Part shown: positions 13,997-53,765 of the stretch, one piece after another | Layout of the letters: every line of letters begins with the position of its first letter | How positions within the stretch are numbered: the first letter of the stretch is position 1 | Notes under the pieces: model-generated | The model's input: only the letters and a program-made list of their open reading frames with translations | What the model was told of the DNA's origin: nothing | Databases searched by the model: none | Assembly (NCBI GenBank): GCA_001782045.1 | Contig: MFNK01000003.1 | Span: 269,049-333,048, forward strand | Reading direction: 5' to 3' | DNA from: Candidatus Levybacteria bacterium RIFCSPHIGHO2_01_FULL_36_15b | GTDB taxonomy: Bacteria > Patescibacteriota > Microgenomatia > Levybacterales > UBA12049 | Length of the DNA: 64,000 bases | Made by a program: the position numbers and the translations under genes

Positions 13997-14826
13997 TTTC
14001 TTAGAATATAACCTATACCACCTACTGCAAATTCACACGTTTTCATAAATAACATTCCGATTCCGAGAAGTGGATTTGAGAATAGTTTACTGGGATTGGA
14101 GAAAAATAACTCATATCTTTTAATCAAACTCAGTTGTTGTTTTGTTTTTAAATTGTTTATTTTTTTAGAGGAATAACTATTTAACTGTTTAGAGTAATAC
14201 ATTTTCTTACTTAAAAGAGTCCCAAGAGATAGATTTCCTTCATTATGATTTATATAGCTTTTTATCCTTCCCAGTTGGTATTTTTTTTCAACTCTCTGGC
14301 TTAAATCCCAATCTTCTCCGCTAACCAAGCTGTCATCATATCCACCAGATTCGTTAAAAACATTTTTTGGGAAAAACCTAGCTGCCTCTAGCCAACCCAC
14401 CCCTTCATAGAAACTTCGCTCCAGAGCCTTGCATTGTGCCCAAAAACCTTTTCCAAAAGATTTTTCAGGAATAATTATACCTCCAATTTTTCGATCTGCA
14501 TTTTTTATTCTTTGTTCTTTGATGATTTTTACACAATCCTGTGCAACCCTTGGTGTTAATTCCATATCGCTATCTATGAAAAGTAGATGTTCGCCTTTTG
14601 CCTTTGATGCACCGAAGTTTCTCTGTACGCTTCTTTCCGGACCTTTATTAAAAACTAGTTTTGTGTACTTCTTTGCAATTTCTTTCGTTTTATCAGTAGA
14701 ATAATTATCAACAACTATTATTTCAATATTGTCATATGTCTGGTTCTTTATACTTTTAATACAAGCATCCAAAAAAACAGCAGAATTTTTTGTTGGAACA
14801 ATAATAGATAGTAAAGGATTTATCAT
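13993..14826 (-). CDS. Glycosyltransferase family 2
   Basis: LLSIIVPTKNSAVFLDACIKSIKNQTYDNIEIIVVDNYSTDKT and a FIDSDME acidic motif. The start overlaps the upstream stop by 1 nt (TAATG). Confidence 0.8.
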   Translation of the reverse strand: MINPLLSIIVPTKNSAVFLDACIKSIKNQTYDNIEIIVVDNYSTDKTKEIAKKYTKLVFNKGPERSVQRNFGASKAKGEHLLFIDSDMELTPRVAQDCVKIIKEQRIKNADRKIGGIIIPEKSFGKGFWAQCKALERSFYEGVGWLEAARFFPKNVFNESGGYDDSLVSGEDWDLSQRVEKKYQLGRIKSYINHNEGNLSLGTLLSKKMYYSKQLNSYSSKKINNLKTKQQLSLIKRYELFFSNPSKLFSNPLLGIGMLFMKTCEFAVGGIGYILRK

Positions 14827-17048
14827 TATTTTCCTATTATTTTAAATTTTAATCGCTTTGCACGAAATACTATTTTCAAAATATAGACAATCAGATAAAT
14901 AAACACTCCTATAAAAGTCGCCAGGGATATATACGTTCCAATATTTACTAGGTCTTGAGGTATATAGTAAAGTCTTAGATTAAAGTTTATACTTCCATCT
15001 GTATTTTTAGTGTAAGATTCTGTACTGTAATTTTTTATAATGTCTGTGGGGTTGATATAAAAAACATTAAATTGCATGTCTGTTTGCAAATGATCTTTGT
15101 CAGAGAGTTGATGCTTGCCTTCTAATTCCAAAGCCCAATCTTTCGCATAGGTATTATTAAAATTAAGGTACAGCGGTTTGTTTATATTTTTTATTTCTAT
15201 TGTGTATTCTGCAGCATTTATATACTTATAATCTACAACTTTATATGGAACTTTTTTATAAACAGTTTCCATTTCTTCTGTAATGTATATAAGAGGTTTA
15301 TAATTAAAATTTTCATATGCTACCATATCTTTTGTCCCAATATCTATTCTTTTAATAAAGTTTAAATTATCAAAAAAGTTAATAATAAAAGGACGATCGT
15401 TTATGCTTGTACCCAGAAACATATCGTCATCAGGAGTATCTTTATATTGTGGTGGGATAACAATATATTTCGTGCTAGTTATATCTAAAAAATTGTCGGA
15501 AAAACTTTGATTTAGTACTTCAAAATTCCAGGGTAGATCGGGAGCTACTTTAGTGGTGTTATATACATGTTCCTTATATTTAGGATTTTTTTTGAATTCC
15601 AAATACCACGCATAAGCATCGTAGTATATTACATAGCGTGGATGAAGATTGTCAAAATAGCTCCACTTGCTAAGCGCAGGAAACCATAATGTTCTAGAAA
15701 ATTGAGTATCATTTTCTAAGATCTCTGCCAAAATTTTGTAATCAGCTGGAAGACTGATGGTATTAAATAATCTCCCGATTTCTCCAGTGAAAAGAGGTTT
15801 TGCATTCCAAATAAAAACACTTGCTATTACAACAAGAATTAAATAACGAGCATAGAAGAAGTAGTTTCTACTTACTTTGATCTGCATTAGTGATTTTACA
15901 AAAGCTCCAATCAATACGCTATAACCAAGCGCTACTAGCATATAGAATTTGCTTGCCTCTCTATACGCATTAAAACCCGGAAAATGATTGTAAAGCCAAA
16001 GATATAAATGTGGAAAGGGGTTGTCCTCCTGTTTTGCCAGTAAAATTCCCAATGCCGCTATGAAAGCAAAAAACCAGACTTTTTTATTTCTATAGTTAAA
16101 TATCAGTCCGAGTGCTGCTATATTTGGTATTAACCAAAAATAGAATGGGATTTGTTGTACGGTAAATACCTTTAGGGATTCCCCTGTCCAGTAAGGATGA
16201 AAGAGCGTTACAGCATGCGAAAGATAGAAAAAATGACTTCCAAATAACGCACGGTCGAATGCCACATTATGGAATAAAGTATCAGAAAGATAAAAAGGCA
16301 TTATCCAGAAGGAGTTCAAAAGAAACATGACTACAAAAGGGATGATTCCAAACATCAAAGTAGAAAAAATTCGTTTAAAGTTACGGTTTTTTATATTTGA
16401 AAAAACCTTATAAACAACATAAAAGAGCATTATCCACAGTACTATATATAGTATTCTGAAATCGTAGGAACCTGCTATAAAGCCCACTAAGCCCACAATT
16501 AGGCTTAAAATCAATTTCTTATTATCGATGCTCTTTATGAATAAATAGAGGATTAAAGGGGTGAATCCATAAGCTACGGCCCATTGAGCTGTGCCTGTCT
16601 GTAAAACAAGTGCAGGCACATTATAACCATATACTAATGCACCAACAATAGCGGCAGTCTTATTTTTCAATAGATATGATATGAGCATAAAACTTCCAAT
16701 GAGAGACAGTATCGCCATGGGAACGAGATATACTAACTTAGAAGCAATTATTGTACTTTGGAAAAAAGTACAGAGACTACCATACATTAAACTGAGAGAT
16801 GGGTACATCGAAAGAACGAAGTTTATCCTACCAAAGCCGGAACCACTTGTGTCTAAGGTCCAAGCGCTAGGAGATGAATAGATATCTCTACAAGTATTAA
16901 TAAACCAACTGAATTGGGAGGTATCCCCGGAGGAAAAAATTTCATTCATGAAAATCCACCTCCAGTGTGTAATTAACGCTATAAGGACAAGAATCATTAC
17001 TGGATAATATTTTTTTATTATATGCACCATATAGATTACGATGTTCAA
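14826..17048 (-). CDS. Family A polytopic membrane protein (740 aa), paralog of 2813-4993
   Basis: Same architecture and shared segments (FNAYREASKFY, IDIGTKDMVAYENFNYKPLIYITEE, PLYLNFNNTY...). Confidence 0.8.
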   Translation of the reverse strand: MNIVIYMVHIIKKYYPVMILVLIALITHWRWIFMNEIFSSGDTSQFSWFINTCRDIYSSPSAWTLDTSGSGFGRINFVLSMYPSLSLMYGSLCTFFQSTIIASKLVYLVPMAILSLIGSFMLISYLLKNKTAAIVGALVYGYNVPALVLQTGTAQWAVAYGFTPLILYLFIKSIDNKKLILSLIVGLVGFIAGSYDFRILYIVLWIMLFYVVYKVFSNIKNRNFKRIFSTLMFGIIPFVVMFLLNSFWIMPFYLSDTLFHNVAFDRALFGSHFFYLSHAVTLFHPYWTGESLKVFTVQQIPFYFWLIPNIAALGLIFNYRNKKVWFFAFIAALGILLAKQEDNPFPHLYLWLYNHFPGFNAYREASKFYMLVALGYSVLIGAFVKSLMQIKVSRNYFFYARYLILVVIASVFIWNAKPLFTGEIGRLFNTISLPADYKILAEILENDTQFSRTLWFPALSKWSYFDNLHPRYVIYYDAYAWYLEFKKNPKYKEHVYNTTKVAPDLPWNFEVLNQSFSDNFLDITSTKYIVIPPQYKDTPDDDMFLGTSINDRPFIINFFDNLNFIKRIDIGTKDMVAYENFNYKPLIYITEEMETVYKKVPYKVVDYKYINAAEYTIEIKNINKPLYLNFNNTYAKDWALELEGKHQLSDKDHLQTDMQFNVFYINPTDIIKNYSTESYTKNTDGSINFNLRLYYIPQDLVNIGTYISLATFIGVFIYLIVYILKIVFRAKRLKFKIIGK

Positions 17049-20424: not shown

Positions 20425-21207
20425 ATGAATACAAAATATGCAATTTTAATTTTATCTTCCGATAAATATCGTGATTTATGGGTTCCTTTTTTTGAACTTT
20501 TTTGGAAGAACTGGCCAAGTTGTCCATTTAATGTTTACTTGGGCAGTAATTCTCACGCTTTCTATCACAAGAGAGTAAAAAATATATTAACGGGAAAGGA
20601 CATTAATTGGTCTACAAGTTATAAAAAGATATTAAAACAGATTCCTGAAAAATATATTTTTGTTTTATTGGAAGATTCAATTATTACAAGCAAGATAGAT
20701 ACTGCTTTGTTCATAAAGTGCTTTAATTTTGCTGAGAGCAATGAAATAAACCATCTAAATTTTACCTCTTTACCTAGTTCTGCAATTACCTCCAAAAATC
20801 CAAAATTTATACCTGTAAAAAGATTCATACCATATAGAGTCCACGTTATTGGTTTCTGGAAAAAAGATTATCTATATGACCTTCTTCTCGAAGGAGAAAA
20901 TCCTTGGAGCTTTGAAATTATGGGCTCATATAGATCTTCCTACGATGACGGATTTTATTCTACCAAGTATCCTATTTATTCATCTATACACTTAGTTAAG
21001 AAGAATAAATGGATCCAGAATGGCTTACAATACTGTAAAGATAACGCAATAGGGATCGATATTTCTAAGAGGAAAAGCTTATCTATGTTCGAGCAACTTT
21101 TGTATAATCTCCATGAATATTATTTCAAATTTATTTATTTTCATTTTGATTGGAAAATTCGAGTGGGATTTATGAATATATTAAGAAGAGCACTGTTAAG
21201 TTACTAA
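20425..21207 (+). CDS. Hypothetical protein, possibly a nucleotide-diphospho-sugar transferase-fold enzyme
   Basis: 260 aa. ILILSSDKYRDLW...FVLLEDSII (acidic DxD-like motif). No confident family assignment. Confidence 0.5.
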   Translation: MNTKYAILILSSDKYRDLWVPFFELFWKNWPSCPFNVYLGSNSHAFYHKRVKNILTGKDINWSTSYKKILKQIPEKYIFVLLEDSIITSKIDTALFIKCFNFAESNEINHLNFTSLPSSAITSKNPKFIPVKRFIPYRVHVIGFWKKDYLYDLLLEGENPWSFEIMGSYRSSYDDGFYSTKYPIYSSIHLVKKNKWIQNGLQYCKDNAIGIDISKRKSLSMFEQLLYNLHEYYFKFIYFHFDWKIRVGFMNILRRALLSY

Positions 21208-25853: not shown

Positions 25854-26902
25854 ACACTTTTATAAACATCGATTGTTTCCTGTGCGGTTTTTTTCCAAGA
25901 AAAACGCTTTACATTTTCTAAGCCTTTCTCCTGAAACTCTTTTTGTAGTTTTTCGTCTTCAAAGACCTCTTTAATTCCTTCAGCCATTTTTTCGTAATTA
26001 AATGGGTCAATATAATAAACACTGTTTCCGCCAACTTCTAAGAGAGATGCTTCTTTTGTTGTAATAACCGGAGAACCACATGCCTGTGCTTCAAGAACTG
26101 GGAGTCCGAAACCTTCATAGAATGATGGCAGTATAGAAACTGTAGCGGTATTATAAAGAGACACTAAATCTTCCTGGGTTACAAAACCAAGAACAGTAAT
26201 AAGATTTGAATTTTCAGTTTTAAATTCGTCGATTTGTTGATGTACACGAACGAGATCCCTATTCCATAAGTTAGTTTTATCGAACTCAGAGACAAAAGCC
26301 TTACCAACCAAAACAAGCGGTATGTTCGCGGCTTTAATCGCATTAAGAAGTCTTGGAAGATTTTTATTTGGGGTCACATCACCAACATACAATACAAACT
26401 TCTCAGGTAGATTATACTTTTTCCTAACTTCCATTTTCCATTTTCCACCTTCAAGAACTCTAAACTCTTCCCCCGCGGCTAAGTAGACAACGTTTACCTT
26501 ATTTTCTTTCGCCCCAACATACTTAAGAATGTCGCCCTTGGAATTTTTGGAATCTGTTATTATTGCATTCGCTTGCTTTAGAGAAAATCTTTGCATCTGC
26601 CATTTAAGCTGACCTTTAAAACCTCTTGGAAAAAGATTGGGAAAAACTATTGGAGTTAAATCGTGGACTGTAACAACTGTTTTATATCTTTTGTATAAAG
26701 GAAGCGCAAGAAAAAACGGTTCGAAATAAGGAAAATGTACCAAATCTACTTTGTTAGGTAATTTATCTCCCGTATTAAAAAATATGTATTCATTTTCCGG
26801 AAAGTAATTAACTAAGGAGCTCTTAAGATGTTCTAAATAAAACCCAACTCCTCTAACTTTATGACCTGTTTGTAGCGGTGAAACATCGATTGCAACTTTC
26901 AT
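25850..26902 (-). CDS. Glycosyltransferase family 4
   Basis: ...SFYEGFGLPVLEAQACGSPVITTKEASLLEVGG. Confidence 0.8.
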   Translation of the reverse strand: MKVAIDVSPLQTGHKVRGVGFYLEHLKSSLVNYFPENEYIFFNTGDKLPNKVDLVHFPYFEPFFLALPLYKRYKTVVTVHDLTPIVFPNLFPRGFKGQLKWQMQRFSLKQANAIITDSKNSKGDILKYVGAKENKVNVVYLAAGEEFRVLEGGKWKMEVRKKYNLPEKFVLYVGDVTPNKNLPRLLNAIKAANIPLVLVGKAFVSEFDKTNLWNRDLVRVHQQIDEFKTENSNLITVLGFVTQEDLVSLYNTATVSILPSFYEGFGLPVLEAQACGSPVITTKEASLLEVGGNSVYYIDPFNYEKMAEGIKEVFEDEKLQKEFQEKGLENVKRFSWKKTAQETIDVYKSV

Positions 26903-28041
26903 AAGTATCTTTTGAGTTTTGGAAATTTAAAAACTAAAAACTCATAAACTCCGTATGTTGCAATTATATATAAAACAGGGATCAGAATTACAAAATATCT
27001 AGCGCTTGCATCGCCTAAGCTCATTAAAATTAAATAACTTAAAGACCAAACAAGCAATATCTCTATTTCTAGCTTTGTATTTCTTGCTATAAAACTTCTC
27101 ATCAGAGTTAAAAAAGATATCACAGTTATGAGAGGCCAAGTGATGAACCATTGAGGATCGTATGCAATTGCATTTCCGTTGTACCATTTATTAATAAGCA
27201 AAAGTGGCCAAATAGTAAATGGCTGTCTTAAATGCCCAGTGTTGTAAAGAAAAATCCATTTTTGAATTCCCAAAAATTTGTTTAATGGGTAACCATCTAA
27301 TAGTACTTTCAAATAAGTTGAATATAAGAATAATACTGCCACTGGTAGGCTGATTATTAGTTGTTTAAGCCTCATATAATCTTTATGTATCAAAAGTGGA
27401 ATTACTAAGGCAACTATAATTGCCGCTCCACTTCCGAAAAATTTTGTTGATATAAAAGCGCCTAAAAATACAGCAGATAAAAAAATATTAAAAAAACTAT
27501 TTCTTGTAATTCTTGCTCTATTAAAAAAATAAAAAATTAACAGCAAGAAAGATAGCTGCATCAAATCTAATAAGGGCGTATAAATCAATTGATTCTTAAA
27601 AATTGGTTCAAAACTAAACAAGAGAGGTGGCAAAGAGGCAATTAAGGAATTTCCGAAAATTTGTTTCCCAACAAGATACATGAGAAACAATGACAGAAGG
27701 GAAAATAAAAATATAACAACGTTTGGATTATTAAAAATAAGAATTGAAGCTCCAATTAAATATTTGCCAAGTGGCGGTGCTTCTGGGTTCGTAATTATGG
27801 GACTTTCTCCTTTAATCAATGCTCCTGCGGAATATGAATATAAATAAAAATCCTTTATAAAATTTCCATGTTTATTCTTATAAACAGAGTCGTAGACCAT
27901 TTTTTTCAGATCAGAGAAGTTATGCCAATAATTGAACGTATATAAATCTTTGTGCGAGTAAACTACAGAAAAAACGTTATAAAAAATCAGCGCAATAAGA
28001 ATAATTTTGATATATTTTAAATTTTTGAGTGCCATTTCCAT
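26899..28041 (-). CDS. Polytopic membrane protein, GT39/PMT_2-like lipid-carrier-dependent glycosyltransferase (divergent)
   Basis: 380 aa with ~10 TM and a first-loop region YSAGALIKGESPIITNPEAPPLGKYLIGASI resembling ArnT/PMT_2 proteins. Confidence 0.55.
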   Translation of the reverse strand: MEMALKNLKYIKIILIALIFYNVFSVVYSHKDLYTFNYWHNFSDLKKMVYDSVYKNKHGNFIKDFYLYSYSAGALIKGESPIITNPEAPPLGKYLIGASILIFNNPNVVIFLFSLLSLFLMYLVGKQIFGNSLIASLPPLLFSFEPIFKNQLIYTPLLDLMQLSFLLLIFYFFNRARITRNSFFNIFLSAVFLGAFISTKFFGSGAAIIVALVIPLLIHKDYMRLKQLIISLPVAVLFLYSTYLKVLLDGYPLNKFLGIQKWIFLYNTGHLRQPFTIWPLLLINKWYNGNAIAYDPQWFITWPLITVISFLTLMRSFIARNTKLEIEILLVWSLSYLILMSLGDASARYFVILIPVLYIIATYGVYEFLVFKFPKLKRYL

Positions 28042-28982
28042 GCGCTTTCAATAATTGTTTTAAGATCTGAATTTATTGGATTAAAACCTAAAATATTTTT
28101 TGCTTTTGTATTGTCTGCAAAGATTTGTGGTGGATCGCCAAATCTTCTATCTTTATATGCAATTTGCAAATCCTTTTCGCTCACCTTTTTTACCATTTCT
28201 AAAACTCCTAGGTTAGAATATCCCTTTCCTGCTCCAAGATTAAAACTATCGCTTGTGTTTTTATCCTTAAGATACGAAAGTGCCTGTAAATGAGCCTCTG
28301 CCAAATCTAAAACGTGGATATAATCCCTAATACAAGTGCCATCAGGTGTTGGATAGTCCTTGCCAAAGAGCGTAAAGGGTTTGTTTTCAAGAATAGCGAT
28401 TATTGCGTTTGGAATAATATGGGTTTCAGCTTCATGGTTTTCCCCCATTGAGCCATCCAAAGCTGCTCCCGCAGCATTAAAATAGCGAAGATTAATGTGT
28501 TTGATATTGTAAATTTTATCGTACCAGAACAAAACTTTCTCAAACATTAACTTAGACTGTCCATAAACACTTTCCGGCTTCTTAGACTCATCCTCGCTCA
28601 CCGGTATTTTCTTCGGTGTACCATATATAGAGCATGTAGATGAAAAAACAAAGTGAGAAGTTTTTCCTTTCATCGCATCAAGCAGGTTAAGACCACCCTG
28701 GATGTTATTCTCAAAATACTTTTCGGGTTTTTCCATTGACTCTCCTGCTAAAGCATAAGCGGCAAAGTGAATTACAGCATCGAATTTGTTTTCGGAAAAT
28801 ATTTTTTTGACAAATTCTTTGTCTAATAGGTTTCCTTCGTAAAGCTTAACTTCCTGTGGAACAACCTCCCTGTGCCCAACTTCTAAACTATCCAAGACAA
28901 TAGGCTCGTCTCCGTTTTCGATGAGTCGCTTTACCATGAAACTTCCGATGTAACCTGCTCCTCCTGTTACTAATATCTTCAT
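28017..28982 (-). CDS. galE: UDP-glucose 4-epimerase
   Basis: MKILVTGGAGYIGSFMVKRL, YGQSKLMFE, RYFNAAGA, GTCIRDYIHVLDLAEAH and FNLGAGKGYS align with GalE. Confidence 0.9.
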   Translation of the reverse strand: MKILVTGGAGYIGSFMVKRLIENGDEPIVLDSLEVGHREVVPQEVKLYEGNLLDKEFVKKIFSENKFDAVIHFAAYALAGESMEKPEKYFENNIQGGLNLLDAMKGKTSHFVFSSTCSIYGTPKKIPVSEDESKKPESVYGQSKLMFEKVLFWYDKIYNIKHINLRYFNAAGAALDGSMGENHEAETHIIPNAIIAILENKPFTLFGKDYPTPDGTCIRDYIHVLDLAEAHLQALSYLKDKNTSDSFNLGAGKGYSNLGVLEMVKKVSEKDLQIAYKDRRFGDPPQIFADNTKAKNILGFNPINSDLKTIIESAWKWHSKI

Positions 28983-28996
28983 TCTTCTATTTTACC

Positions 28997-30550
28997 TTAT
29001 CTGAAAATTAAATTCTGGAAATAATTTGGATCTACTTCTAATTTATCCTTGGAAAGATCTATTTTCTCAACAACTATACCACTGTCAAATCTTTTAAAAG
29101 TTGCGGGCTCCGCTTGCGTTCTAATTACGTTTTCCTTCCAGAATAAATGAGCATTATCATCATTCTGACGGGGCGGATACATTATTAAATACGTGTTCTG
29201 TGATTTTCTATTCTCGAGCTGGTTTAACCTATTTTCTTTTGAGAAATACCAAATTAGGTAATCCATATTATAGGTTAAAATACCCGGTGAATATACAAAG
29301 TATCCCGCGTCTTTTCGTTTAGAATCATTAATAACCCACTCGGCAACCTCTTTCTGATTTATGTAAGTTCCATTGCTTACTGATTTATATTCTTGATTTT
29401 GAAGATATACAGTACTGAGATAATTCAAAGGCGCTATGACTGCAATTAAAAGAAAGGCTAAAACTAGGAAACGAAGAAAAGGAATTTTCCAAATGATTTT
29501 TATTGATAAGCTTACGATAAAAGAAAAAATTACAGCAATTGGAAGAAGATAGTGGGACCACAAAGGGAAAGGGTAAATTATGTAAAAACCAAAGATCAAG
29601 ACAGGAGAGAACAAAAGAAAAATAAACTCTTTATCCAACTTTTGAATTCTTGAGCTTCTAATTTTTTTGGTTAAAAAGAATAATGCAGAGAAAATAATAG
29701 AAACCAATAATATTTCTGAAATTATATTTTTTTCATATAAAGGCGAGAAAAAACTATCCCACAAAGCATTTGCCCTATCACCCACCCTAAATATAATATC
29801 TGAATACTGTTCGTAACCGGGAAGTGGTTTATGTGTATTTGTGAATAATTTAAATACAGAAGAAGTCATTAAAAACTGATGCCTTAAGTCGAAAAGAATA
29901 AAAGTAGATACTGCCAATACCGCGCTTAGAAAGCCTAAAAATAAATATTTGATTCTTGGAATTCTTCCTGCAAAAAGAAAAGCTAAAATAGTTACCGGCA
30001 GAAGAAGGACAGAAAATGCAGACTCAAACTGAAAACCCAGTCCTATTGAAAAGAGTGCAAGTATAAAATATTTTTCCTCCCCTCTGATAAATTTAACTAT
30101 TGAAAGAAGATATAAAAGAAACACAATGGGAAGTACTTGAGCGTTAGTAGTAATTTGAGTAGATGCAATAAGCTCACCTGATATGGTAAGAAAAAAAGCA
30201 ACAAGCAGTCCTAGCCAGTTGTTATACAGCTTCCATCCTACAATAAAACCGGCTGCAACAATTCCTAGATTTACCAAAAGGAAAAGCGGAATGAGGGTAA
30301 GGAAAGGATTTCCTCCAGACAAGATAAAGAATGGAACTATAAAATATATCCATAACACCCCATGAAATAAGCCTCCGAAGCCCGTACGTCCTCCTATAAG
30401 AGTTAAATCGTGGTCCACTGCAATTGACTTAGCAATAAGCAAATCCCTTGCCTGGTCTACCAAATAAAAAAAATCTCCGTTCAATAACATATTTGACCTT
30501 AGCAAAAAAGCAATCAAAAGAATTGCTATGAATAAAAGGAGGGTCTTCAT
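28997..30550 (-). CDS. Family B polytopic membrane glycosyltransferase (ArnT/GT83-like with DQARD loop motif)
   Basis: 517 aa. The first extracytoplasmic loop ...FYLVDQARDLLIAKSIAVDHDLTLIGGRTGFGGLFHGVLWIYF aligns with the ArnT DEARYAEIAREML...KPPL region. Confidence 0.7.
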   Translation of the reverse strand: MKTLLLFIAILLIAFLLRSNMLLNGDFFYLVDQARDLLIAKSIAVDHDLTLIGGRTGFGGLFHGVLWIYFIVPFFILSGGNPFLTLIPLFLLVNLGIVAAGFIVGWKLYNNWLGLLVAFFLTISGELIASTQITTNAQVLPIVFLLYLLSIVKFIRGEEKYFILALFSIGLGFQFESAFSVLLLPVTILAFLFAGRIPRIKYLFLGFLSAVLAVSTFILFDLRHQFLMTSSVFKLFTNTHKPLPGYEQYSDIIFRVGDRANALWDSFFSPLYEKNIISEILLVSIIFSALFFLTKKIRSSRIQKLDKEFIFLLFSPVLIFGFYIIYPFPLWSHYLLPIAVIFSFIVSLSIKIIWKIPFLRFLVLAFLLIAVIAPLNYLSTVYLQNQEYKSVSNGTYINQKEVAEWVINDSKRKDAGYFVYSPGILTYNMDYLIWYFSKENRLNQLENRKSQNTYLIMYPPRQNDDNAHLFWKENVIRTQAEPATFKRFDSGIVVEKIDLSKDKLEVDPNYFQNLIFR

Positions 30551-32859
30551 TTGTTAAGATTTATTTTTTCAATTAAGTATTTTTGCAATGAAAAAGTGGA
30601 TTTCAGTTGGTATTTATTGAGCCAGCCTACCAAATCGTCATAAACCGTGGGTTGATTAACGTTAATCCATATTTTTTTGTCTTTTTCAAAATCTTGGCTT
30701 TTAACGCTACCCAAATCAACAAGCAAAAAAACTTCTTTATTTACCGCCGGAAGTCTTTCTTTGGAACAACCATCTTCTTCTATGCAGCTAAAACCTATTT
30801 TTTTGCCGTTGACGTCTGATATTCCCCTAAAACTCATTATTAAACTTAAGCCCATGCTTTGACCATAAAATTTATAAGTATAATCGTATAAAGAAAATTT
30901 TGTGTTAGGAAATTTTTTTGTTAAATTGTTAATAACTTTTTCATATCCAAATCTCGGACTCGGATAATTAATTACAATAAGTATATAAGTCACACTAAAC
31001 AGAATTATTAGAGCCATAGATAAAACAACAAAGGCTTTGGACAGTCTTATGTTTAAATTCCAAATTTTATATAAAACAAAAGAACTAAAAATTAATATAA
31101 AAGGCAATAAGTAAATTAAATATCCCTCACTTCTTTCAGCTCTATAAAATCTGTTTATAAAAACAAATAATAAGAATATAAAACCCAATACTAATAATTG
31201 TGCAGATACTTTCTTTTTGAATGCATAAAAAAGAAAAAAAACGGAACTTGTAAAAAATAGAACCAGTCCTAATACTGGAAGTCGTCCTACAACAAACGAC
31301 CAATATGCAGGAAAGTCCTGAAATAAATAAAGCTTCCAGCTATTTGGAACATAAATTCTCCCTACTCCGATTAAAAAGTAATCTAAAATATTTAATGTGT
31401 TTGCAAAGCCCTGTTGGCTATCCCAATAAATTATTGGCAAAGACGCAATGAAAAATCCTGTCAAGGAAAAGAATAATGCTTTAACCTTGTCTTTAACTGA
31501 TAAACTAGTTATGAAGAAAAGAGCAAGAAAGAATACAAGAAGATTAATTGATTGATAATGCATACTTAAGGCAACTCCAACTGATAACCCCATTAAAAAT
31601 GAGTAGATGTGATTTTTTTTCTTCCAAAGCAGTAAAAAACAAATAATTGAAAGTGCAGAAAAAGTAGCTACAAAAGTATGCTGACCCAGGCTTAAAGATC
31701 TAACTACAAGTTGAGGGGAAAAAGCTGCCAAAATACCCATTATTATTGAAAACTTTTCATCAATCAAAATTTTGCCCAAATACATTAACAAAACTACTGT
31801 AATAATGCTTGTTATTTCCATCATTACCCATGGAGCTCCTATAAAAAAGGGCAAAGCCAGATAAGAAAGCATTATAAACCAGTAAAATATAGGACCAAAA
31901 ACAAATGGACCTGCGCTGCTAAAAGACCCTGTCAGGGGCAGCTCAAGGCGTTTTATTGACTCTAGAGCGATGATTGCATCTCTACTATCGTCTCCGCCAA
32001 GCCCCCATCGCAAAGGAAAGTTCCAGAGCCTTAAAATTGATGCAATTATGATAATTACTGCCGCCAAGAATTTGTAAGTACCAACGTATTTTATGTATGA
32101 GACTGGAAATCGGAGAGCTGAAACAAAACTGAATAAAAATCCTTGCCACCCATCCATAAACCCCTTGTGTCTAAAATATGTCGTAAAAAACCAGTGAGCA
32201 GGTCTGACTAGCAAATACATAAAACCGTAGAAAGTTTTCTGTAAAAAGTTCTTTGTTTTTTGTTCTTCTTTTATTTGGTGGGAATAAAAATTGTTATAGA
32301 AATTCCATTTTTTTAAGTAATGCGAAAAATTTTTATAAGGATAATGAAGTAGCGCTGATTTTAAATACCCTACTTTTCCATCTATTACTGCCTGTTCGTG
32401 AACATCTTTTTGTGGCAGTTTTCCTTTACCATTTCTATATAGACGAATTGTATAATCAGGGTATTGTCCGCCTTTCATTAAAAATCTTCCCAAAAACCAG
32501 TTTTTTCTGGGCATCCAGTAGCCATTGATTTGCTGATGGTTGATTGTTGATGGTTGATGGTTAAGAATGCTCTTTATCTCCTGCGCCAATTCGGGAGACA
32601 CTTGTTCATCCGCATCCATTTGTAACACCCAATCCGACGTTGCAATATCAATTGCCATTTGTTTATTTATATGGAAGTTTTCTTTATTAGTGGTTATTTT
32701 TACTTTAGCCCCGTATTTTTTTGCTATTTCCACCGTTTTATCCGTTGAGGCTCCATCAACTATTATTATTTCATCGGCAATATCTTTAAAACTTTCTATG
32801 CACGAAGCAAGATTTTTTTCTTCGTTAAAAGTTGCTAAAACTACAGATAGAGTTTTCAT
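30547..32859 (-). CDS. Fusion protein: N-terminal GT2 (WaaE/KdtX-like) domain + C-terminal family B GT-C-like membrane domain (770 aa)
   Basis: N-terminus LSVVLATFNEEKNLASCIESFKDIADEIIIVDGASTDKTVEIAKKYGAKV...QMDADEQVS. After ~aa 250, 11+ TM helices with ...GGDDSRDAIIALESIKRLELPLTGSFSSAGPFVFGPIFYW (the family B loop motif). Confidence 0.75.
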   Translation of the reverse strand: MKTLSVVLATFNEEKNLASCIESFKDIADEIIIVDGASTDKTVEIAKKYGAKVKITTNKENFHINKQMAIDIATSDWVLQMDADEQVSPELAQEIKSILNHQPSTINHQQINGYWMPRKNWFLGRFLMKGGQYPDYTIRLYRNGKGKLPQKDVHEQAVIDGKVGYLKSALLHYPYKNFSHYLKKWNFYNNFYSHQIKEEQKTKNFLQKTFYGFMYLLVRPAHWFFTTYFRHKGFMDGWQGFLFSFVSALRFPVSYIKYVGTYKFLAAVIIIIASILRLWNFPLRWGLGGDDSRDAIIALESIKRLELPLTGSFSSAGPFVFGPIFYWFIMLSYLALPFFIGAPWVMMEITSIITVVLLMYLGKILIDEKFSIIMGILAAFSPQLVVRSLSLGQHTFVATFSALSIICFLLLWKKKNHIYSFLMGLSVGVALSMHYQSINLLVFFLALFFITSLSVKDKVKALFFSLTGFFIASLPIIYWDSQQGFANTLNILDYFLIGVGRIYVPNSWKLYLFQDFPAYWSFVVGRLPVLGLVLFFTSSVFFLFYAFKKKVSAQLLVLGFIFLLFVFINRFYRAERSEGYLIYLLPFILIFSSFVLYKIWNLNIRLSKAFVVLSMALIILFSVTYILIVINYPSPRFGYEKVINNLTKKFPNTKFSLYDYTYKFYGQSMGLSLIMSFRGISDVNGKKIGFSCIEEDGCSKERLPAVNKEVFLLVDLGSVKSQDFEKDKKIWINVNQPTVYDDLVGWLNKYQLKSTFSLQKYLIEKINLNK
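32534..32561. repeat. Heptanucleotide tandem repeat (TGATGGT)x4, one imperfect unit, inside the coding sequence of 30547-32859
   Basis: tgatggt tgattgt tgatggt tgatggt (28 bp). It encodes ...STINHQQINGYW... on the minus strand. Confidence 0.7.
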
Positions 32860-34508
32860 TATTTATCCTTGCTGTAGGTAGTATAACATGTGAACCTTGG
32901 ATTGACCTTTATGATACTTTTAATTGAATCTATTTCTTTTTTACCCAAGCCTTGGGTGTCTTTGAAGGTACTTAAATCCTGGTTTAAAATACGCTTTTGT
33001 ACAATAAGATCAGTATATTTCTTCTCTTCAATGAGGCTTGATGTATTATCTTCCATGTATATAAATACCGGTTTTATGAAATCTGAAATGCCAGCATTCG
33101 GCTCTAAAATAATAAATCTCAATGGCACGTGATTTTTATCATACGGAAGATTATTAGAGTCTACTACCTGTTCTTGACCTGCCCAATACGGAACATAACC
33201 ATATGTGTTTTTGCCATATGTACTATATAAATATGACCAGAGCACGTTAATATATAACGGATTTGTCAAAGCGCATATACTAAATGGCTTACCTTCAGCA
33301 GAGATGTATGTGTAATCAATTAAATTCTTCTCATCTTTTAATGTAAAATTTTGAATACTTAAAAGCTTTATTGCTTTAAAATTATCTGAAACAAACAAGT
33401 ACATATTAGAAACAAAAACAATAAGAATCCCCAGTATTAGGATGATATTTTTGGCAGATTTGATATTTACAAGTACATAGGCGGCAAGTATTGATAGTGG
33501 AGCAAAAAAAGTTGTATTTATTAATTGAGTCTCATGAACCCCGCTGAATGTCAAAAATAGTGGAGCTGTTGCGAACAGCCAAATGAAAAAAAAGATTTTA
33601 GTTTTAGACACCTTAATTTTAATCCAGGAAAATATTGAAAAAGATATAAACAATGCAAATGCAATTGTTGTGTCAAAGGCAAGAAGTGAATAGCGGATAG
33701 CCTGTGATATTTTAACTATATACCTATTTATTCCTCCAATTAAATCAAAGGTTTGCTTGTGGGATAGCACATAATTAAGCAACGATTTTGTCATCATAAA
33801 ATTCCATTTTAATTCTGCAATTAAATACGGCGAAAAGAGGGCAAACAGTAAGACAAAATTTAACAATAATATCCTTAAGCCTATCTTTGGTTTAAAAATC
33901 AAAAAATAAACGATGTAGAAAATTAGCTGATAAAATAGGTAAAAATTTGTCTGGACACTTAATGCAAAACCGATTACCGAGATTGTTAAGCCAATGTTTT
34001 TCTTTTGGAAAATAAATATTGCAAGCCCGATAAAAAACAATAACGATGCTATTCCCATAGGGGATGCATTAGATATAAATTTTGAGAAATTTATCTGCTC
34101 ATAAGAAACTGCCCAGAAAAAAGCAGCAAGCAATCCCACTCTCTTATCATTAAATAAAATGATGCTCGTAAAATATATTAAAAATATTGCGCTGATATTG
34201 ATAAGTGACAAAAATATTGCAGGAAAATTTGGATTAAATCCGCCTATTAAATAAACTATTGCTAGAACGTAGTAAGATAAAACTCCATGAAACACACCCG
34301 GTATATCAGATTCCTGTCCTAATAACTTAAAATTCTTAAGGTTAACAATGTCTAACATTCTTTGTGCATCTCTCGCTTGATCGTAACCAAAAGTAAAATT
34401 ATCCCAGATATTAAATAGCCTTAAGCACGCTCCAAAGGAAAATATTAACAAGAGGATAAATAGCGGATTTTGAAACAATTTCTTTATAAATTTTAAATTA
34501 ATTTTCAT
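32859..34508 (-). CDS. Family B polytopic membrane glycosyltransferase (ArnT-like, DQARD motif)
   Basis: ...FGYDQARDAQRMLDIVNLKNFKLLGQESDIPGVFHGVLSYY.... 549 aa, ~13 TM. Confidence 0.7.
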   Translation of the reverse strand: MKINLKFIKKLFQNPLFILLLIFSFGACLRLFNIWDNFTFGYDQARDAQRMLDIVNLKNFKLLGQESDIPGVFHGVLSYYVLAIVYLIGGFNPNFPAIFLSLINISAIFLIYFTSIILFNDKRVGLLAAFFWAVSYEQINFSKFISNASPMGIASLLFFIGLAIFIFQKKNIGLTISVIGFALSVQTNFYLFYQLIFYIVYFLIFKPKIGLRILLLNFVLLFALFSPYLIAELKWNFMMTKSLLNYVLSHKQTFDLIGGINRYIVKISQAIRYSLLAFDTTIAFALFISFSIFSWIKIKVSKTKIFFFIWLFATAPLFLTFSGVHETQLINTTFFAPLSILAAYVLVNIKSAKNIILILGILIVFVSNMYLFVSDNFKAIKLLSIQNFTLKDEKNLIDYTYISAEGKPFSICALTNPLYINVLWSYLYSTYGKNTYGYVPYWAGQEQVVDSNNLPYDKNHVPLRFIILEPNAGISDFIKPVFIYMEDNTSSLIEEKKYTDLIVQKRILNQDLSTFKDTQGLGKKEIDSIKSIIKVNPRFTCYTTYSKDK

Positions 34509-41533: not shown

Positions 41534-42244
41534 TTAATCTGTGAATCTATATTTAAAAAGGTACCAGATTGCTTTGCTTCCGTCCTTTACTGCGCTTATC
41601 TTCTTTCCTTCTTCATATCCCCGCGGTTTAACCTCTATTGGAAGTTCCATAATTTTATATCCTCTTTTTAATAGCTTTGCAGTAATTTCCGGTTCAAACT
41701 CAAACCCCTTAGCATTCATTCTTACACCGTTAAGAGCAACTTTTGGAAAAAGCTTGTAGCAGGTTTCCATATCTGTTATCCATTGACCATACAAGATGCT
41801 TGTAACTAGGCTTAGGAATCTGTTTCCAAAATAATGTAGCAAAAACCTAAAAGTTTTCTCTTCTCCTGCAAGACGAGGGAGTCTTTTTATTCTCGTTCCA
41901 TAAACTACTTTTGATTTTTTTTCTAATATTGGTTTTATTAACTGCCTGATAAACTTTGGATCGTATTCCAAATCGGCATCTTGAATAATTATGTATTCCC
42001 CGGTTGAGTTTTTAATACCTGCAAGAACTGCAGCTCCTTTTCCCTGGTTTTTATCTTGCAATATGGTTTTAAAAGATTTTGATTGAAGTTTATTTAATTT
42101 TTCCCGCGTTTCATCTGTTGAGCCATCATCAACTACTATAATTTCTTTTTCAACTCCAGGAATTTTTTCGTTGATAACTTTTTTTAGAATTTCTTCTACA
42201 GTTTTTCCTTCGTTATAAACAGGAATAATTATAGATAATTTCAT
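41534..42244 (-). CDS. GT2 polyprenol-phosphate-sugar synthase (DPM1/GtrB-like)
   Basis: MKLSIIIPVYNEGKTVEEILKKV...IIVVDDGSTDETREKL, ...DADLEYDP..., ...ITDMETCYKLFPK. 236 aa, no TM. Confidence 0.8.
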   Translation of the reverse strand: MKLSIIIPVYNEGKTVEEILKKVINEKIPGVEKEIIVVDDGSTDETREKLNKLQSKSFKTILQDKNQGKGAAVLAGIKNSTGEYIIIQDADLEYDPKFIRQLIKPILEKKSKVVYGTRIKRLPRLAGEEKTFRFLLHYFGNRFLSLVTSILYGQWITDMETCYKLFPKVALNGVRMNAKGFEFEPEITAKLLKRGYKIMELPIEVKPRGYEEGKKISAVKDGSKAIWYLFKYRFTD

Positions 42245-46537: not shown

Positions 46538-46771
46538 GTGGTGAATAATTTTCTAATTCCGCAAATTCCCTCATTGCTTCTTTTTGCAGCTTTCCTTTGG
46601 ACTTTGCTTTGGAAAGGCATAGCACTATGGAGAGCCGCCAACTTAAAACAAAAGAATTGGTTTATAGCAATTCTTGTTTTAAACACGTTAGGAATTCTAG
46701 AGCTTGTTTACTTGTTTTATTTTGCTAAAAAAAGGCTTACCATACAAGAACTTAAATTTTGGGAAAAATAA
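46538..46771 (+). CDS. Possible small 2-TM membrane protein (77 aa, GTG start), PLDc_N-like pattern
   Basis: Two hydrophobic helices (LLLFAAFLWTLLW / WFIAILVLNTLGILELVYLFYF). Its 3' end overlaps the convergent gene 46697-49051 by 75 nt, which lowers confidence. Confidence 0.3.
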   Translation: MVNNFLIPQIPSLLLFAAFLWTLLWKGIALWRAANLKQKNWFIAILVLNTLGILELVYLFYFAKKRLTIQELKFWEK

Positions 46772-51607: not shown

Positions 51608-53062
51608 CTAACTCCTTAGGTTTTCTCTTATAAGTAATAAATCGGTTTTTAAACGTTCTTTTCCTATAATATATACTGTAAAAAAGTATATCACAGCTCC
51701 GATTACAATGACCGAAATTAAGCCAAGTAAATTAACCGAAATAAAAGGACTTATTAGGTAAACAGCAATTCCCATAAGAATTGATCCGAAAATTGGATAA
51801 GAAATCGCACTTGCTACATTAAATTTAATTTGTCTTTTTGTTATATAAATAACTAAAACTACTGAAACTGAAATTATCGCAGAAGCAATTGCAACTCCAT
51901 TAAAACCAAATAGTACAATTAGTAGTGGCGTTAAAACCCAAGTTGATAAGGTCCAAAATACCATAAGATATAGGGTGGTTTTAATTTTGCCTATTGCATT
52001 CAAAGCATTCGTAAGCGGCGTAGAGATAGAAGATAAACTTGCGTTTATAGAAAAAAATAAAAGAGACAAAAGCGCAGGCTCCCATTTGCTGTACCTTGGA
52101 ATGAGATCAATAAAATATGGGGATAAAACCACCAGTCCCACAAGCGAGGGAAAAATAAGGAAACTTGCTGCGAATATTGATTTTTCTATTGCTTTTGAAA
52201 GAATCTCTTTTTCATTCTGAAGTCTTGAAAAAGAAGGAAAAGTTATTCTTATAACATTATCCATTACTAATCTTAAAGGCATTAAAGACCACTTTTGCGC
52301 AAACCCAATATAGCCTACTTGTGAAAAAGGAAGTATTTTGCCCAAAAAAGCTATAAACAAATCATCTTTTATTAAGGCGAGCAAGCTATTAAGCTGGAAT
52401 GGAACCCCAAAGGTTAAGAGTTTTTTTGCACTATCTTTTGAAAATCCAATACCAACTCGCCAGGGACTTATTATATATATTGTAATAAGTCCTGAAATTC
52501 CCCGAGCCAGAACTGCAAAACTAAAGCTTGAAATTCCGAATCCATTAATTGCCAAAATCACAACTGTAATATTAAAAAATAAAGCTTCTACTAATTGAGG
52601 CACTACCAGTTTTGTAAAATTTAATTCCCTCTCTAATATTATCGATGGTATGGTTTTAAGGGAAGAAAGAAAAAACGATACGGCAAGAGCTTGGAAGAGA
52701 AATACCCCGTCTTGTCCTAAATTATAAAACCTTCCAATACTGCTCGAGAAAAAAAGTGCTAATGCAACAAGTGATAAAACGAGAATCTGTTGGATGGTGA
52801 AAGTAGTCTTTAAATCATCATCTGTTATATTTTCTTTTTTTTGTATCAGAGCAGCTGCAAGTCCAACATCAGAAAAATACGAAAGAAAAGCAATGATAGC
52901 CGAAACAATAAAAAACACCCCAAAAATTGAAGGAGCCAGAAAAATTGTAAGTAAAAAATTAGCAGAAAAATTTACAACTTGTATAAAAAACGTTCTTGAA
53001 GTAAGTGCTATTATTCCACGAACTGATTTCTGCTTAATTGTGGCTATATCAACTTCTTGCAT
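51608..53062 (-). CDS. Wzx/MurJ-like (MOP superfamily) polysaccharide flippase
   Basis: 484 aa, ~14 TM. ...SVRGIIALTSRTFFIQVVNFSANFLLTIFLAPSIFGVFFIVSAIIAFLSYFSDVGLAAALIQK... is typical of Polysacc_synt proteins. Confidence 0.7.
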   Translation of the reverse strand: MQEVDIATIKQKSVRGIIALTSRTFFIQVVNFSANFLLTIFLAPSIFGVFFIVSAIIAFLSYFSDVGLAAALIQKKENITDDDLKTTFTIQQILVLSLVALALFFSSSIGRFYNLGQDGVFLFQALAVSFFLSSLKTIPSIILERELNFTKLVVPQLVEALFFNITVVILAINGFGISSFSFAVLARGISGLITIYIISPWRVGIGFSKDSAKKLLTFGVPFQLNSLLALIKDDLFIAFLGKILPFSQVGYIGFAQKWSLMPLRLVMDNVIRITFPSFSRLQNEKEILSKAIEKSIFAASFLIFPSLVGLVVLSPYFIDLIPRYSKWEPALLSLLFFSINASLSSISTPLTNALNAIGKIKTTLYLMVFWTLSTWVLTPLLIVLFGFNGVAIASAIISVSVVLVIYITKRQIKFNVASAISYPIFGSILMGIAVYLISPFISVNLLGLISVIVIGAVIYFFTVYIIGKERLKTDLLLIRENLRS

Positions 53063-53765
53063 GATTAAAATTCAAATCTTTCCATAACGTCAAACTTTCC
53101 TTTATTGCCCTAAGAATTACCCGTAAGTTTCCCCCGCTTTGATCTCCATAAATACGTGGATAATGATGAACTTCAACTTCTAGAATTTTTAATTTTGCTT
53201 TTCTTGCCCTGGCTAAAATTTCCGTGGTTATCATAGCTCCTTCGGATGAAAGAGGAAGAATTTTATTTACTGCTTCTTTCTTAAATAGCTTAAATCCACA
53301 ATCTATATCTTTAAACCTAAATCCAAAAAATATATAGTCCCAAATCTTAAGTAGCAACATTAATAAGTGTCTAAATGGATGATCATGTCTTTTTTTCCTG
53401 AAACCTACTACTATGTCAGCGTTGTCTATTTTTTCCATAAATTTTGATATTTCCGAAAAATCAAACTGCCCATCACCGTCATTAAAAACAATATGATTGT
53501 ATCTTGATCTTTTTAACCCGGTTTTTAAAGCAGCTCCATATCCCCTGTTTTCTCCATGAGCAACCGTAATAAGTCTATTGTCTCTTTCTGATATTTTTTT
53601 CATAAGTTCTAGCGTATTGTCAGAAGATCCATCATCCACCATTATAATTTCCCATTTTTTTGCTATTTTATTAGCAACGGGAATTGCCTTATTTATAACT
53701 CTTTCCAAATTTTCTTCCTCGTTCCAAAAGGGGAAAAAGATTGATAATTCCTCAAATCTGCTCAT
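53049..53765 (-). CDS. GT2 polyprenol-phosphate-sugar synthase (DPM1/GtrB-like)
   Basis: LSIFFPFWNEEENLERVI...IIMVDDGSSDNT...HGENRGYGAALKTG, ...DIDCGFKLFKK. Confidence 0.75.
   Translation of the reverse strand: MSRFEELSIFFPFWNEEENLERVINKAIPVANKIAKKWEIIMVDDGSSDNTLELMKKISERDNRLITVAHGENRGYGAALKTGLKRSRYNHIVFNDGDGQFDFSEISKFMEKIDNADIVVGFRKKRHDHPFRHLLMLLLKIWDYIFFGFRFKDIDCGFKLFKKEAVNKILPLSSEGAMITTEILARARKAKLKILEVEVHHYPRIYGDQSGGNLRVILRAIKESLTLWKDLNFNHARS

Follow-up and report, generated by a model that had tools for sequence, protein, structure and literature searches.

The window analysed here, 64,000 nucleotides from the patescibacterium Candidatus Levybacteria bacterium RIFCSPHIGHO2_01_FULL_36_15b (contig MFNK01000003.1, positions 269,049 to 333,048), is a glycan super-cluster in which one gene of the minus strand carries two glycosyltransferase domains in a single chain. 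This gene, of 770 amino acids, joins an N-terminal domain of glycosyltransferase family 2 (GT2) with the GT-A fold, residues 1-259, to a GT-C domain of about 12 helices followed by a C-terminal soluble domain, residues 261-770. A sequence-only reading of the window had already proposed a single open reading frame (ORF) with this composition, and the uninterrupted ORF, Pfam, AlphaFold2 and Foldseek all agree with it; the peptides quoted in that reading, LSVVLATFNEEKN, IIIVDGASTDKT and DADE, are all found in the ORF. The gene is tightly packed between two stand-alone GT-C genes, its ATG sharing 1 nt with the stop codon of the upstream one (TAATG) and its stop sharing 4 nt with the start of the downstream one. 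Its features, from the N- to the C-terminus, are the following.

30547..32859, minus strand: fused gene, 770 amino acids, ATG start, no internal stop
32335..32859, minus strand: GT-A catalytic core (residues 1-175) of the LgtF/SunS/GmaR subtype, from Pfam PF00535, PDB sequence matches and Foldseek (SunS/ThuS, E 8e-9)
32608..32616, minus strand: DxD motif D82-A-D84, both Asp invariant in 44 fused homologues
32395..32400, minus strand: H154-E155 dyad, nearly invariant, aligned with IHEQ of GmaR
32083..32334, minus strand: GT2 C-terminal helical region (residues 176-259), with conserved amphipathic helices 205-230 and 238-259 (RHKGFMDxWQGF..SALRFPVSY)
32074..32085, minus strand: fusion junction (..IKYV/GTYK/FLAAV..), residues 259-262, with GT2 homology up to residue 259 and GT-C homology from residue 262
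30964..32079, minus strand: GT-C membrane domain (residues 261-632), about 12 hydrophobic helices, from Pfam PMT_2, AlphaFold2 helices, hydropathy and Foldseek
31978..31998, minus strand: GGDDSRD motif in the first loop after transmembrane helix 1 (TM1), putative outer-face catalytic acidic site, D290 and D294 invariant
30550..30963, minus strand: C-terminal alpha/beta soluble domain (residues 633-770), with a nearly invariant Cys692/Cys698 pair

The two halves were recognised by Pfam with very different strength: Glycos_transf_2 (PF00535) covers residues 5-139 with an E-value of 8e-24 (84.9 bits, cutoff 23.3), and the match of PMT_2 (PF13231) to residues 323-479 is marginal (E 2e-6, 28.5 bits, cutoff 26.1). 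An AlphaFold2 model of the whole protein, built with 44 homologues as input, was confident (mean predicted local distance difference test, pLDDT, 87.4; predicted template modelling score, pTM, 0.83), and with a pLDDT of about 90 over residues 1-100 it displays a GT-A fold at its N-terminus. When this model was compared with known structures through Foldseek, the N-terminal part retrieved the S-glycosyltransferases SunS and ThuS as best matches, together with GtrB, K4CP and SpsA, and the membrane part retrieved AglB, PglB, STT3 and Pmt4 with probability 1.0 over some 480-550 aligned columns. The 44 fused homologues all have D35, D82, D84, D290 and D294, and nearly all have H154, E155 and R293, so the catalytic motifs are kept in both halves of the protein.

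A search covering 5.8 billion proteins gave at least 54 full-length homologues of 756-789 amino acids, with identities of 44-78% and a query coverage of 99-100%, coming from many independent assemblies, the remoter relatives being stand-alone GT-C proteins of 510-550 amino acids. One such protein (P0056, 523 amino acids), encoded in a 100-kb contig of a metagenome-assembled genome (MAG; L001), lies directly downstream of a gene for a GT2 of 261 amino acids. The split GT2 has 71% identity to residues 2-259 of the fusion and the split GT-C 49% identity to residues 262-766, extents that place the junction at residues 259-262. Moreover, the two split genes overlap by 8 nt (ATGCATAA), and the order of the surrounding genes is the same as in the window: a GT-C of the PTPS_related type, GT2, GT-C and epimerase. 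As far as sequence comparison can tell, the fusion thus arose from two adjacent overlapping genes. The junction itself (..SALRFPVSYIKYV/GTYK/FLAAVIII..) has essentially no linker, the last GT2 helix running almost straight into TM1 of the GT-C domain. The sequence-only reading was right about the fusion, and the boundary that it had sought around nucleotides 32100-32300 falls slightly downstream, at about 32074-32085.

The best matches of the GT2 half among PDB sequences are GmaR (1e-14 over residues 5-188) and SunS (5e-10), those to DPMS (3e-5) and GtrB (3e-3) being weaker. The top NCBIfam match is the SunS family, with 48.8 bits against an equivalog cutoff of 350, and all other NCBIfam scores are likewise far below the family cutoffs; by these scores, the domain is the orthologue of no characterised member. 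No WaaE, KdtX or LgtF entry appears among the PDB-sequence or NCBIfam matches, and no direct comparison with these three proteins was made. SunS and GmaR are, however, proteins that we take to group with LgtF and WaaE (CDD cd02511), and judged by these closest characterised relatives the earlier WaaE/KdtX-like label is reasonable as the name of a subfamily. Sequence and fold similarities both assign the domain to the LgtF/SunS/GmaR type and not to the carrier-charging type of DPMS and GtrB. In this regard, it reads QMDADEQVSP and lacks both the DADL(E/Q)xDP signature and the GY(K/R)xF-type motif of the polyprenyl-phosphate sugar synthases. It was discarded as an enzyme of the GtrB/DPMS type, although this role is kept below as a rival function; the suggestion that the GT2 charges a lipid carrier finds no support in its sequence or its fold. 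A published classification of GT-A enzymes separates an LgtF-related group, called GT2-LpsRelated, from the dolichol-phosphate group GT2-DP, although the canonical aspartate of the xED motif is absent from both (PMC7185993).

On sequence grounds, E155 of the H-E dyad is a candidate for the catalytic base. Beyond the catalytic core, H231, G233 and D236 of the C-terminal helical region are invariant in the fused homologues, and the same region is present in the split orthologue and in stand-alone paralogues of the window. Two of these paralogues, at 49035-49787 and 50693-51604, had been singled out as GT2s of the same type, and they are: they share 31% and 38% identity with the fused domain, the same G[FY]xDGxxG helical region and the same NCBIfam profile. 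The 250-residue product of the first (minus strand) is encoded by a gene that overlaps by 17 nt the start of another one for a YfhO-type GT-C of 784 amino acids (46697-49051, minus strand), an unfused GT2-to-GT-C pair of the same kind that recalls csbB-yfhO.

Mean Kyte-Doolittle hydropathy over the helices at 205-230 and 238-259 is 0.2-1.1, and the first span reaching 1.6 or more starts only at residues 256-261, which indicates that no membrane pass exists between the GT2 and TM1. A transmembrane hairpin between the two domains was considered and rejected because these helices are amphipathic, and they are predicted to lie on the cytoplasmic surface of the membrane without spanning it. GT-C enzymes have a cytoplasmic N-terminus, and their first loop, which carries acidic residues, faces outward. 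Given this topology and the lack of a pass before TM1, the GT2 would be cytoplasmic, as had been anticipated.

As for the GT-C half, some 12 hydrophobic helices were counted between residues 261 and 630 from the AlphaFold2 model and hydropathy, close to the "11+" of the sequence-only reading. Its first loop keeps D290 and D294 without exception and R293 almost always, also in fusions to other GT-C families, whose version of the motif is DQ(A/G)RD. The C-terminal alpha/beta domain is probably extracytoplasmic. Sequence similarity to solved GT-C enzymes was not detectable in the PDB sequence search, and NCBI labels the relatives as 'glycosyltransferase family 39 protein [Patescibacteria group bacterium]'.

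The fusion can be better understood together with five other genes of the window.

28017..28982, minus strand: GalE, UDP-glucose 4-epimerase (TIGR01179, 392.8 bits, cutoff 262.3)
28997..30550, minus strand: stand-alone GT-C paralogue of 517 amino acids, directly downstream, with orthologues fused to the same GT2 in P0118 and P0119
32859..34508, minus strand: stand-alone GT-C paralogue of 549 amino acids, directly upstream, with a relative that is the fusion partner of the GT2 in P0058
41534..42244, minus strand: GT2 of 236 amino acids, DPMS/AglJ type, candidate polyprenyl-phosphate-sugar synthase (best NCBIfam AglJ; DADLEYDP signature)
53049..53765, minus strand: GT2 of 238 amino acids, ArnC/DPMS type, second candidate polyprenyl-phosphate-sugar synthase (best ArnC; GDGQFDFSEI at the signature position)

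Among the matches of the 5.8-billion-protein search, 59 proteins have both domains, and most of them share the GT-C type of the window. A few do not. In P0058, the same GT2 (78% identity) is joined to a GT-C of the 32859-34508 type, with 377 bits to that paralogue and 33 bits to the fused GT-C, and in P0118 and P0119 (68% and 64% identity) to a GT-C of the 28997-30550 type (410-426 bits, compared with 24 bits to the fused GT-C). Two further GT-C types occur behind the same GT2 in P0116 and P0054; the protein encoded at L012:3950-6265 was also listed with these five. Whereas the GT2 keeps 59-78% identity across fusions to different GT-C families, these fused families score only 24-52 bits against each other (about 120 bits for P0116 and the 517-residue type), and two of the partner families reach 377-426 bits with the stand-alone paralogue of their own type in the window. 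Since the window encodes these GT-C families in genes of their own, they must have diverged before the fusions, and the same GT2 was therefore fused at least four times independently, always with the junction 5-20 residues past the ..SALRFP(V)SY sequence. A single fusion event for the whole family is ruled out by the matrix of bit scores among the GT-C partners.

Such a fusion would be topologically easy, the C-terminus of the GT2 and the N-terminus of the GT-C both being on the cytoplasmic side. GT2-to-GT-C is also the only easy fusion in arrays of this kind, so its recurrence may reflect permissiveness as well as selection. For the GT-C type of the window, a neighbour-joining tree gathered 57 fusions in one clade of 70 leaves with a group of 12 split-gene leaves nested inside, although the internal branches are short and unreliable and the direction cannot be read from them, the nested split genes being either ancestral or the result of secondary fission.

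The same locus was followed in related genomes by scanning GTDB with one genome per species, which gave 342 related stretches; the counts below refer to the best 79 of these 342 loci. According to their record titles, the stretches come mostly from Candidatus Levybacteria/Levyibacteriota, with a few from Gottesmanbacteria. Many MAGs that are Levybacteria or Patescibacteria by gene content (L008-L011, L014, L016, L020 and others) bear the title 'uncultured Gammaproteobacteria bacterium', a placeholder or mislabel. The gene is fused in 7 of the 79 loci. In about 14 more, the GT2 is followed by an overlapping GT-C whose best match is that of the fusion, four of them close (45-49% identity) and ten distant (27-33%), and in about 8 the GT2 is followed by GT-C paralogues of other types. 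The most frequent arrangement, found in about 34, consists of a stand-alone GT2 orthologue (251-279 amino acids, 60-76% identity) with the epimerase as the next gene and no GT-C behind it. The gene upstream of the GT2, on the other hand, is almost always a GT-C. Orthologues are thus not uniformly split, as the at least 54 fused homologues and the 7 fused loci attest, but split and GT-C-less forms exist as well, and the expectation that relatives would also be fused holds in part.

An exhaustive search of 1.84 billion representatives at 50% identity yielded hundreds of stand-alone GT-C and GT2 proteins and a single one, P0027, matching the fusion over its full length in both domains (residues 2-767), from which the fused type amounts to one 50%-identity cluster; the other representatives listed with GT2 and GT-C domains, such as P0138, have a different GT2. 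The fusion type of the window is therefore conserved, though of little phylogenetic depth. The GT2 gene is the conserved core, and its downstream GT-C partner is facultative in a partnership that is nevertheless recurrent. In Levybacteria RIFCSPHIGHO2_01_FULL_37_17 (L061:3995-6375), for example, the gene directly behind a stand-alone GT2 (64% identity) codes for an orthologue of the 517-residue GT-C with 82% identity, which shows that GT-C genes come and go like cassettes in the interval from the GT2 to GalE. In this line, to regard the fusion as direct genetic evidence that the two activities cooperate was too strong a statement: GalE lies directly next, with no GT-C, in about 34 of the roughly 65 reference loci with a stand-alone GT2 orthologue, others have unrelated GT-C paralogues at that place, and all fusions of this type fall within one cluster at 50% identity.

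A second kind of fusion involves the same GT-C family and another GT2. P0070 (L085:8001-10223, 740 amino acids) has a GT-C of the window's type (about 45% identity, 416 bits), and its N-terminal domain is a GT2 of the DPMS/ArnC type, matching the Pyrococcus DPMS with an E-value of 7e-22 over residues 6-214 and showing 43% identity to the 236-residue GT2 of the window (41534-42244). Both carry QDADLEYDP followed by CYKLF or GYKMF. The P0070 gene stands alone, outside any glycan cluster; P0135, P0138, P0153 and P0154 are similar fusions, and L020:3989-6245 represents the split state, with a DPMS-type GT2 of 235 amino acids directly upstream of a stand-alone GT-C of the same type. The P0070 family is a donor synthase joined to the user of the donor, just as the sequence-only reading had envisaged for the window, where the GT2 is a different one. 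Since the GT-C family adjoins or is fused to true DPMS-type GT2s in other Patescibacteria, a polyprenyl-phosphate-hexose donor is indirectly supported for it and, by analogy, a polyprenyl-phosphate-sugar donor for the GT-C of the fused gene. The rarity attributed to such fusions turns out to be only relative, as the window's GT2 was fused at least four times to different GT-Cs and the DPMS-type fusions exist besides.

These observations led us to favour, with a probability of about 0.55, a bifunctional glycosyltransferase that would work on both faces of the membrane in one envelope-glycan pathway; we infer its topology, donors and acceptors, and also that both reactions share one pathway. The GT-A domain would be kept at the cytoplasmic face by two attachments, the amphipathic helices at its own C-terminus and, since the fusion, the GT-C, and would move a sugar from a nucleotide sugar to a membrane-proximal acceptor, most likely a lipid-linked glycan intermediate. 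That donor, probably UDP-galactose (UDP-Gal) or UDP-N-acetylgalactosamine (UDP-GalNAc), likely comes from GalE, whose gene is conserved across Levybacteria downstream of either the GT2 or the GT2-GT-C pair. The GT-C, starting right after the last GT2 helix and with its DDxRD loop placed on the outer face, would then add a second sugar to the same glycoconjugate once exported, using a polyprenyl-phosphate-sugar that another GT2, of the DPMS type, would supply, for instance the one encoded at 41534-42244. A conserved GT2 combined with variable GT-Cs would fit, speculatively, a conserved residue with lineage-specific decoration.

Several points weigh against this bifunctional enzyme. The donor and acceptor proposed for each domain are read from the family it belongs to and the genes around it, and from nothing else. 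In about half of the reference loci, the orthologous GT2 has no GT-C downstream, hence the conserved job of the GT2 needs no GT-C of the window's type. Moreover, with some 15 GT-C genes in 43 kb, adjacency to one of them is nearly unavoidable. Finally, a conserved GT2 followed by a variable GT-C also fits a GtrB-like donor synthase, the LgtF-related and the dolichol-phosphate subfamilies both lacking the canonical xED aspartate (PMC7185993).

This last point leads to the strongest competitor, to which we give clearly less credit but which deserves to be kept in mind: a Gtr-like module, where the GT2 charges polyprenyl phosphate on the inside, for example with galactose, and the attached GT-C uses the lipid-linked sugar on the outside. 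In the Gtr systems a conserved gtrB is paired with a serotype-specific gtr gene, and a GT2 at 59-78% identity with variable and repeatedly fused GT-Cs resembles that pairing. True DPMS-type GT2s hold the same position by this GT-C family, adjacent in L020 and fused in P0070, and the LgtF-type GT2 at 49035-49787, with its 17-nt overlap with a YfhO-type gene, recalls csbB-yfhO. The amphipathic C-terminal helices are also strongly conserved, basic (R230, H231, K232, R250) and located at the membrane surface, and the GT2-LpsRelated group resembles GT2-DP in the missing xED aspartate (PMC7185993). Yet in sequence and fold DPMS, ArnC and GtrB are more distant from the GT2 than enzymes directed to proteins or glycans, the DP signature is missing, and the nearly invariant His-Glu dyad of the GT2 at the position of the base suggests a hydroxyl acceptor. 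The window already holds two DP-type synthases, and most orthologous GT2s have no GT-C downstream. Also against a carrier-charging role, members of the same GT2 subtype occur in tandem GT2-GT2, triple-GT2 and GT2-GT4 proteins, and such tandem fusions are a habit of chain-building cytoplasmic transferases. Examples of these proteins are P0183 (796 amino acids), P0185 and P0196 (533-549 amino acids) and P0231 (601 amino acids); a giant protein of 2742 amino acids (P0235) contains the subtype in five matched stretches. We know of no characterised carrier-charging enzyme in the LgtF/SunS-type subfamily.

Rather unlikely, in our opinion, is a near-neutral fusion of two enzymes that act independently, welded by the loss of an overlap in a packed operon, with the GT-C serving at most as a membrane anchor. 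Overlaps of 1-17 nt between neighbouring genes are indeed found throughout, and the GT-C partner varies or is missing; the fused family forms one 50%-identity cluster, and split genes are nested among fused ones in the neighbour-joining tree. Fusions between two GT-Cs would moreover be disfavoured topologically, leaving GT2-to-GT-C as the only easy outcome. At least four independent fusions with the same order and junction speak otherwise, as does a fusion maintained down to 42-44% identity with the catalytic residues of both halves invariant. The near absence of a linker together with the pTM of 0.83 suggests, as far as the model goes, a fixed arrangement of the domains. A still more improbable option is a physically coupled trans-bilayer unit, of which the repeated linker-free joining of the GT2 helix to TM1 of different GT-Cs could be the mark, with an LgtF/SunS-type GT-A making a lipid-linked sugar and handing it to a GT-C whose membrane domain also moves the sugar across; if true, it would mean a new class of acceptor for the subfamily and would explain the absence of a GtrA-type flippase. 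Last, a sequencing or assembly frameshift joining two genes has practically no chance and can be discarded from the homologues, as the sequence-only reading had supposed, for although relatives have split versions with overlapping reading frames, no fewer than 54 separate protein clusters, drawn from many unrelated assemblies, and 7 reference genomes have the same continuous architecture without a stop, and the fused forms depart from the split ones at the junction by about 20 residues, not by a 1-nt shift.

Extracytoplasmic glycosylation systems with three or four components, in which a GT2 and a GT-C are encoded separately, are well known, among them Gtr, CsbB/YfhO, GacI-L, Wps and ArnC/ArnT. 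As in the window, a GT2 of the cytoplasmic face stands side by side with an outer-face GT-C in GtrB/GtrA/Gtr, CsbB/GtcA/YfhO, GacI/GacJ/GacK/GacL, WpsA/WpsB/WpsG/WpsJ and ArnC/ArnT, and the polyprenyl-phosphate sugar used by the GT-C of all these systems would, by analogy, serve that of the window too, whose cluster has Wzx-type flippases. In contrast to them, the fused GT2 is of the LgtF/SunS/GmaR subtype instead of GtrB/DPMS, the two catalytic proteins form one polypeptide with a facultative GT-C partner, and no GtrA-like or GacJ-like gene was found among the scanned ORFs of the window. A natural fusion of a GT2 with a small membrane activator has been described as GacJ-GacI (PMC10821137).

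The GT2-LpsRelated group of PMC7185993, with the lipopolysaccharide (LPS) core glucosyltransferases of the LgtF/WaaE type and the protein or peptide glycosyltransferases SunS/ThuS and GmaR, offers the best sequence and fold matches for residues 1-190, with the DADE motif and the H-E dyad in common, and a nucleotide-sugar donor is expected for the window's GT2 as for them. This group differs in what follows the GT-A core, since here there is no tetratricopeptide repeat or other peptide-binding domain but amphipathic helices and then the GT-C. To our knowledge, the host lineage has no LPS.

Another comparison, with the mycobacterial Ppm1, had been made in the sequence-only reading and does not apply, because the partner of the Ppm synthase in that protein (Rv2051c of Mycobacterium tuberculosis) is an acyltransferase domain, Lnt (PMC3850990), and because the window's GT2 is not of the DPMS type. 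Both proteins have a GT2 fused to a polytopic membrane domain and adjacent split genes in related species, but in Ppm1 this membrane domain is not a GT-C, the GT2 is a carrier-charging enzyme of the DPMS type and the order of the domains is reversed (PMC3850990). The class A GT-Cs ArnT, PMT, PglB and AglB share with the window's protein the polytopic fold, the acidic motif in the first outer loop and the C-terminal soluble domain, the motif being DDxRD here and DE or DxD in them. We know of no report of an N-terminal GT-A domain on any of these four enzymes. In the chondroitin polymerase K4CP and in tandem GT2 or GT2-GT4 enzymes, successive glycosyltransfer steps likewise take place in one chain, although both of their domains take nucleotide sugars and share one side of the membrane, whereas the active sites of the window's fusion are predicted on opposite faces.

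The fused gene belongs to a train of co-directional minus-strand genes of about 43 kb (21204-63975), with some 15 GT-C-like genes (PMT_2, PTPS_related and three of the YfhO type, with 749-795 amino acids), about 9 GT2s, 3 GT4s, two Wzx-type flippases, methyltransferases and GalE. The other 21 kb of the window code for RmlD, a GDP-mannose dehydratase, a DegT aminotransferase, a formyltransferase, a C-methyltransferase and more glycosyltransferases. The whole window, with a G+C content of 30-36%, totals about 15 GT-C-like genes, around a dozen GT2s, several GT4s and several methyltransferases, an extraordinary investment in glycans for a lineage with near-complete contigs of mostly 0.6-0.9 Mb. 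The GT2s of 236 and 238 amino acids, the two candidate donor synthases, score best on the NCBIfam families AglJ, ArnC and PpgS. A Pfam scan of the window ORFs plus the stretch 1-1900 found neither a priming phosphoglycosyl transferase nor a gene of the GtrA family, the latter within a scan that left smaller gaps and other ORFs under 150 amino acids aside. Pfam recognised nothing in five sizeable ORFs that lie within the glycan cluster or next to it: 26899-28041, 14826-17048, 2813-4993 and 1846-2715 on the minus strand and 20425-21207 on the plus strand, coding for 380, 740, 726, 289 and 260 amino acids, respectively. The 380-residue product (26899-28041), hydrophobic and encoded between GalE and a GT4, has no NCBIfam match either; it was compared with the MptA_B-family protein encoded at the corresponding place in L001 and found to be unrelated.

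In the literature, we found no described single-chain fusion of GT-A with GT-C or of GT2 with an ArnT-like protein, nor anything relevant on GT-C enzymes in Patescibacteria or on this Levybacteria family, although the architecture is already present in public protein collections, unnamed and with both Pfam domains precomputed. With its function inferred, the fusion leaves current concepts of glycosylation unchanged: it varies known systems modestly and gives no evidence of a new principle. Structural studies of the docking of a GT-A on a GT-C could use it as a compact construct in one chain, and fusions of the P0070 type, a cleaner module of donor synthase and user, would be the better target for studying donor channelling. 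For the organism, a striking share of a sub-megabase genome is spent on about 15 GT-C enzymes. Should one glycoconjugate be the target of both domains, then the fusion, taken with the split forms and the other GT-C partners, would be a natural 'Rosetta stone', which would pair cytoplasmic with extracytoplasmic steps in the otherwise unreadable envelope-glycan pathways of uncultivated bacteria of the candidate phyla radiation.

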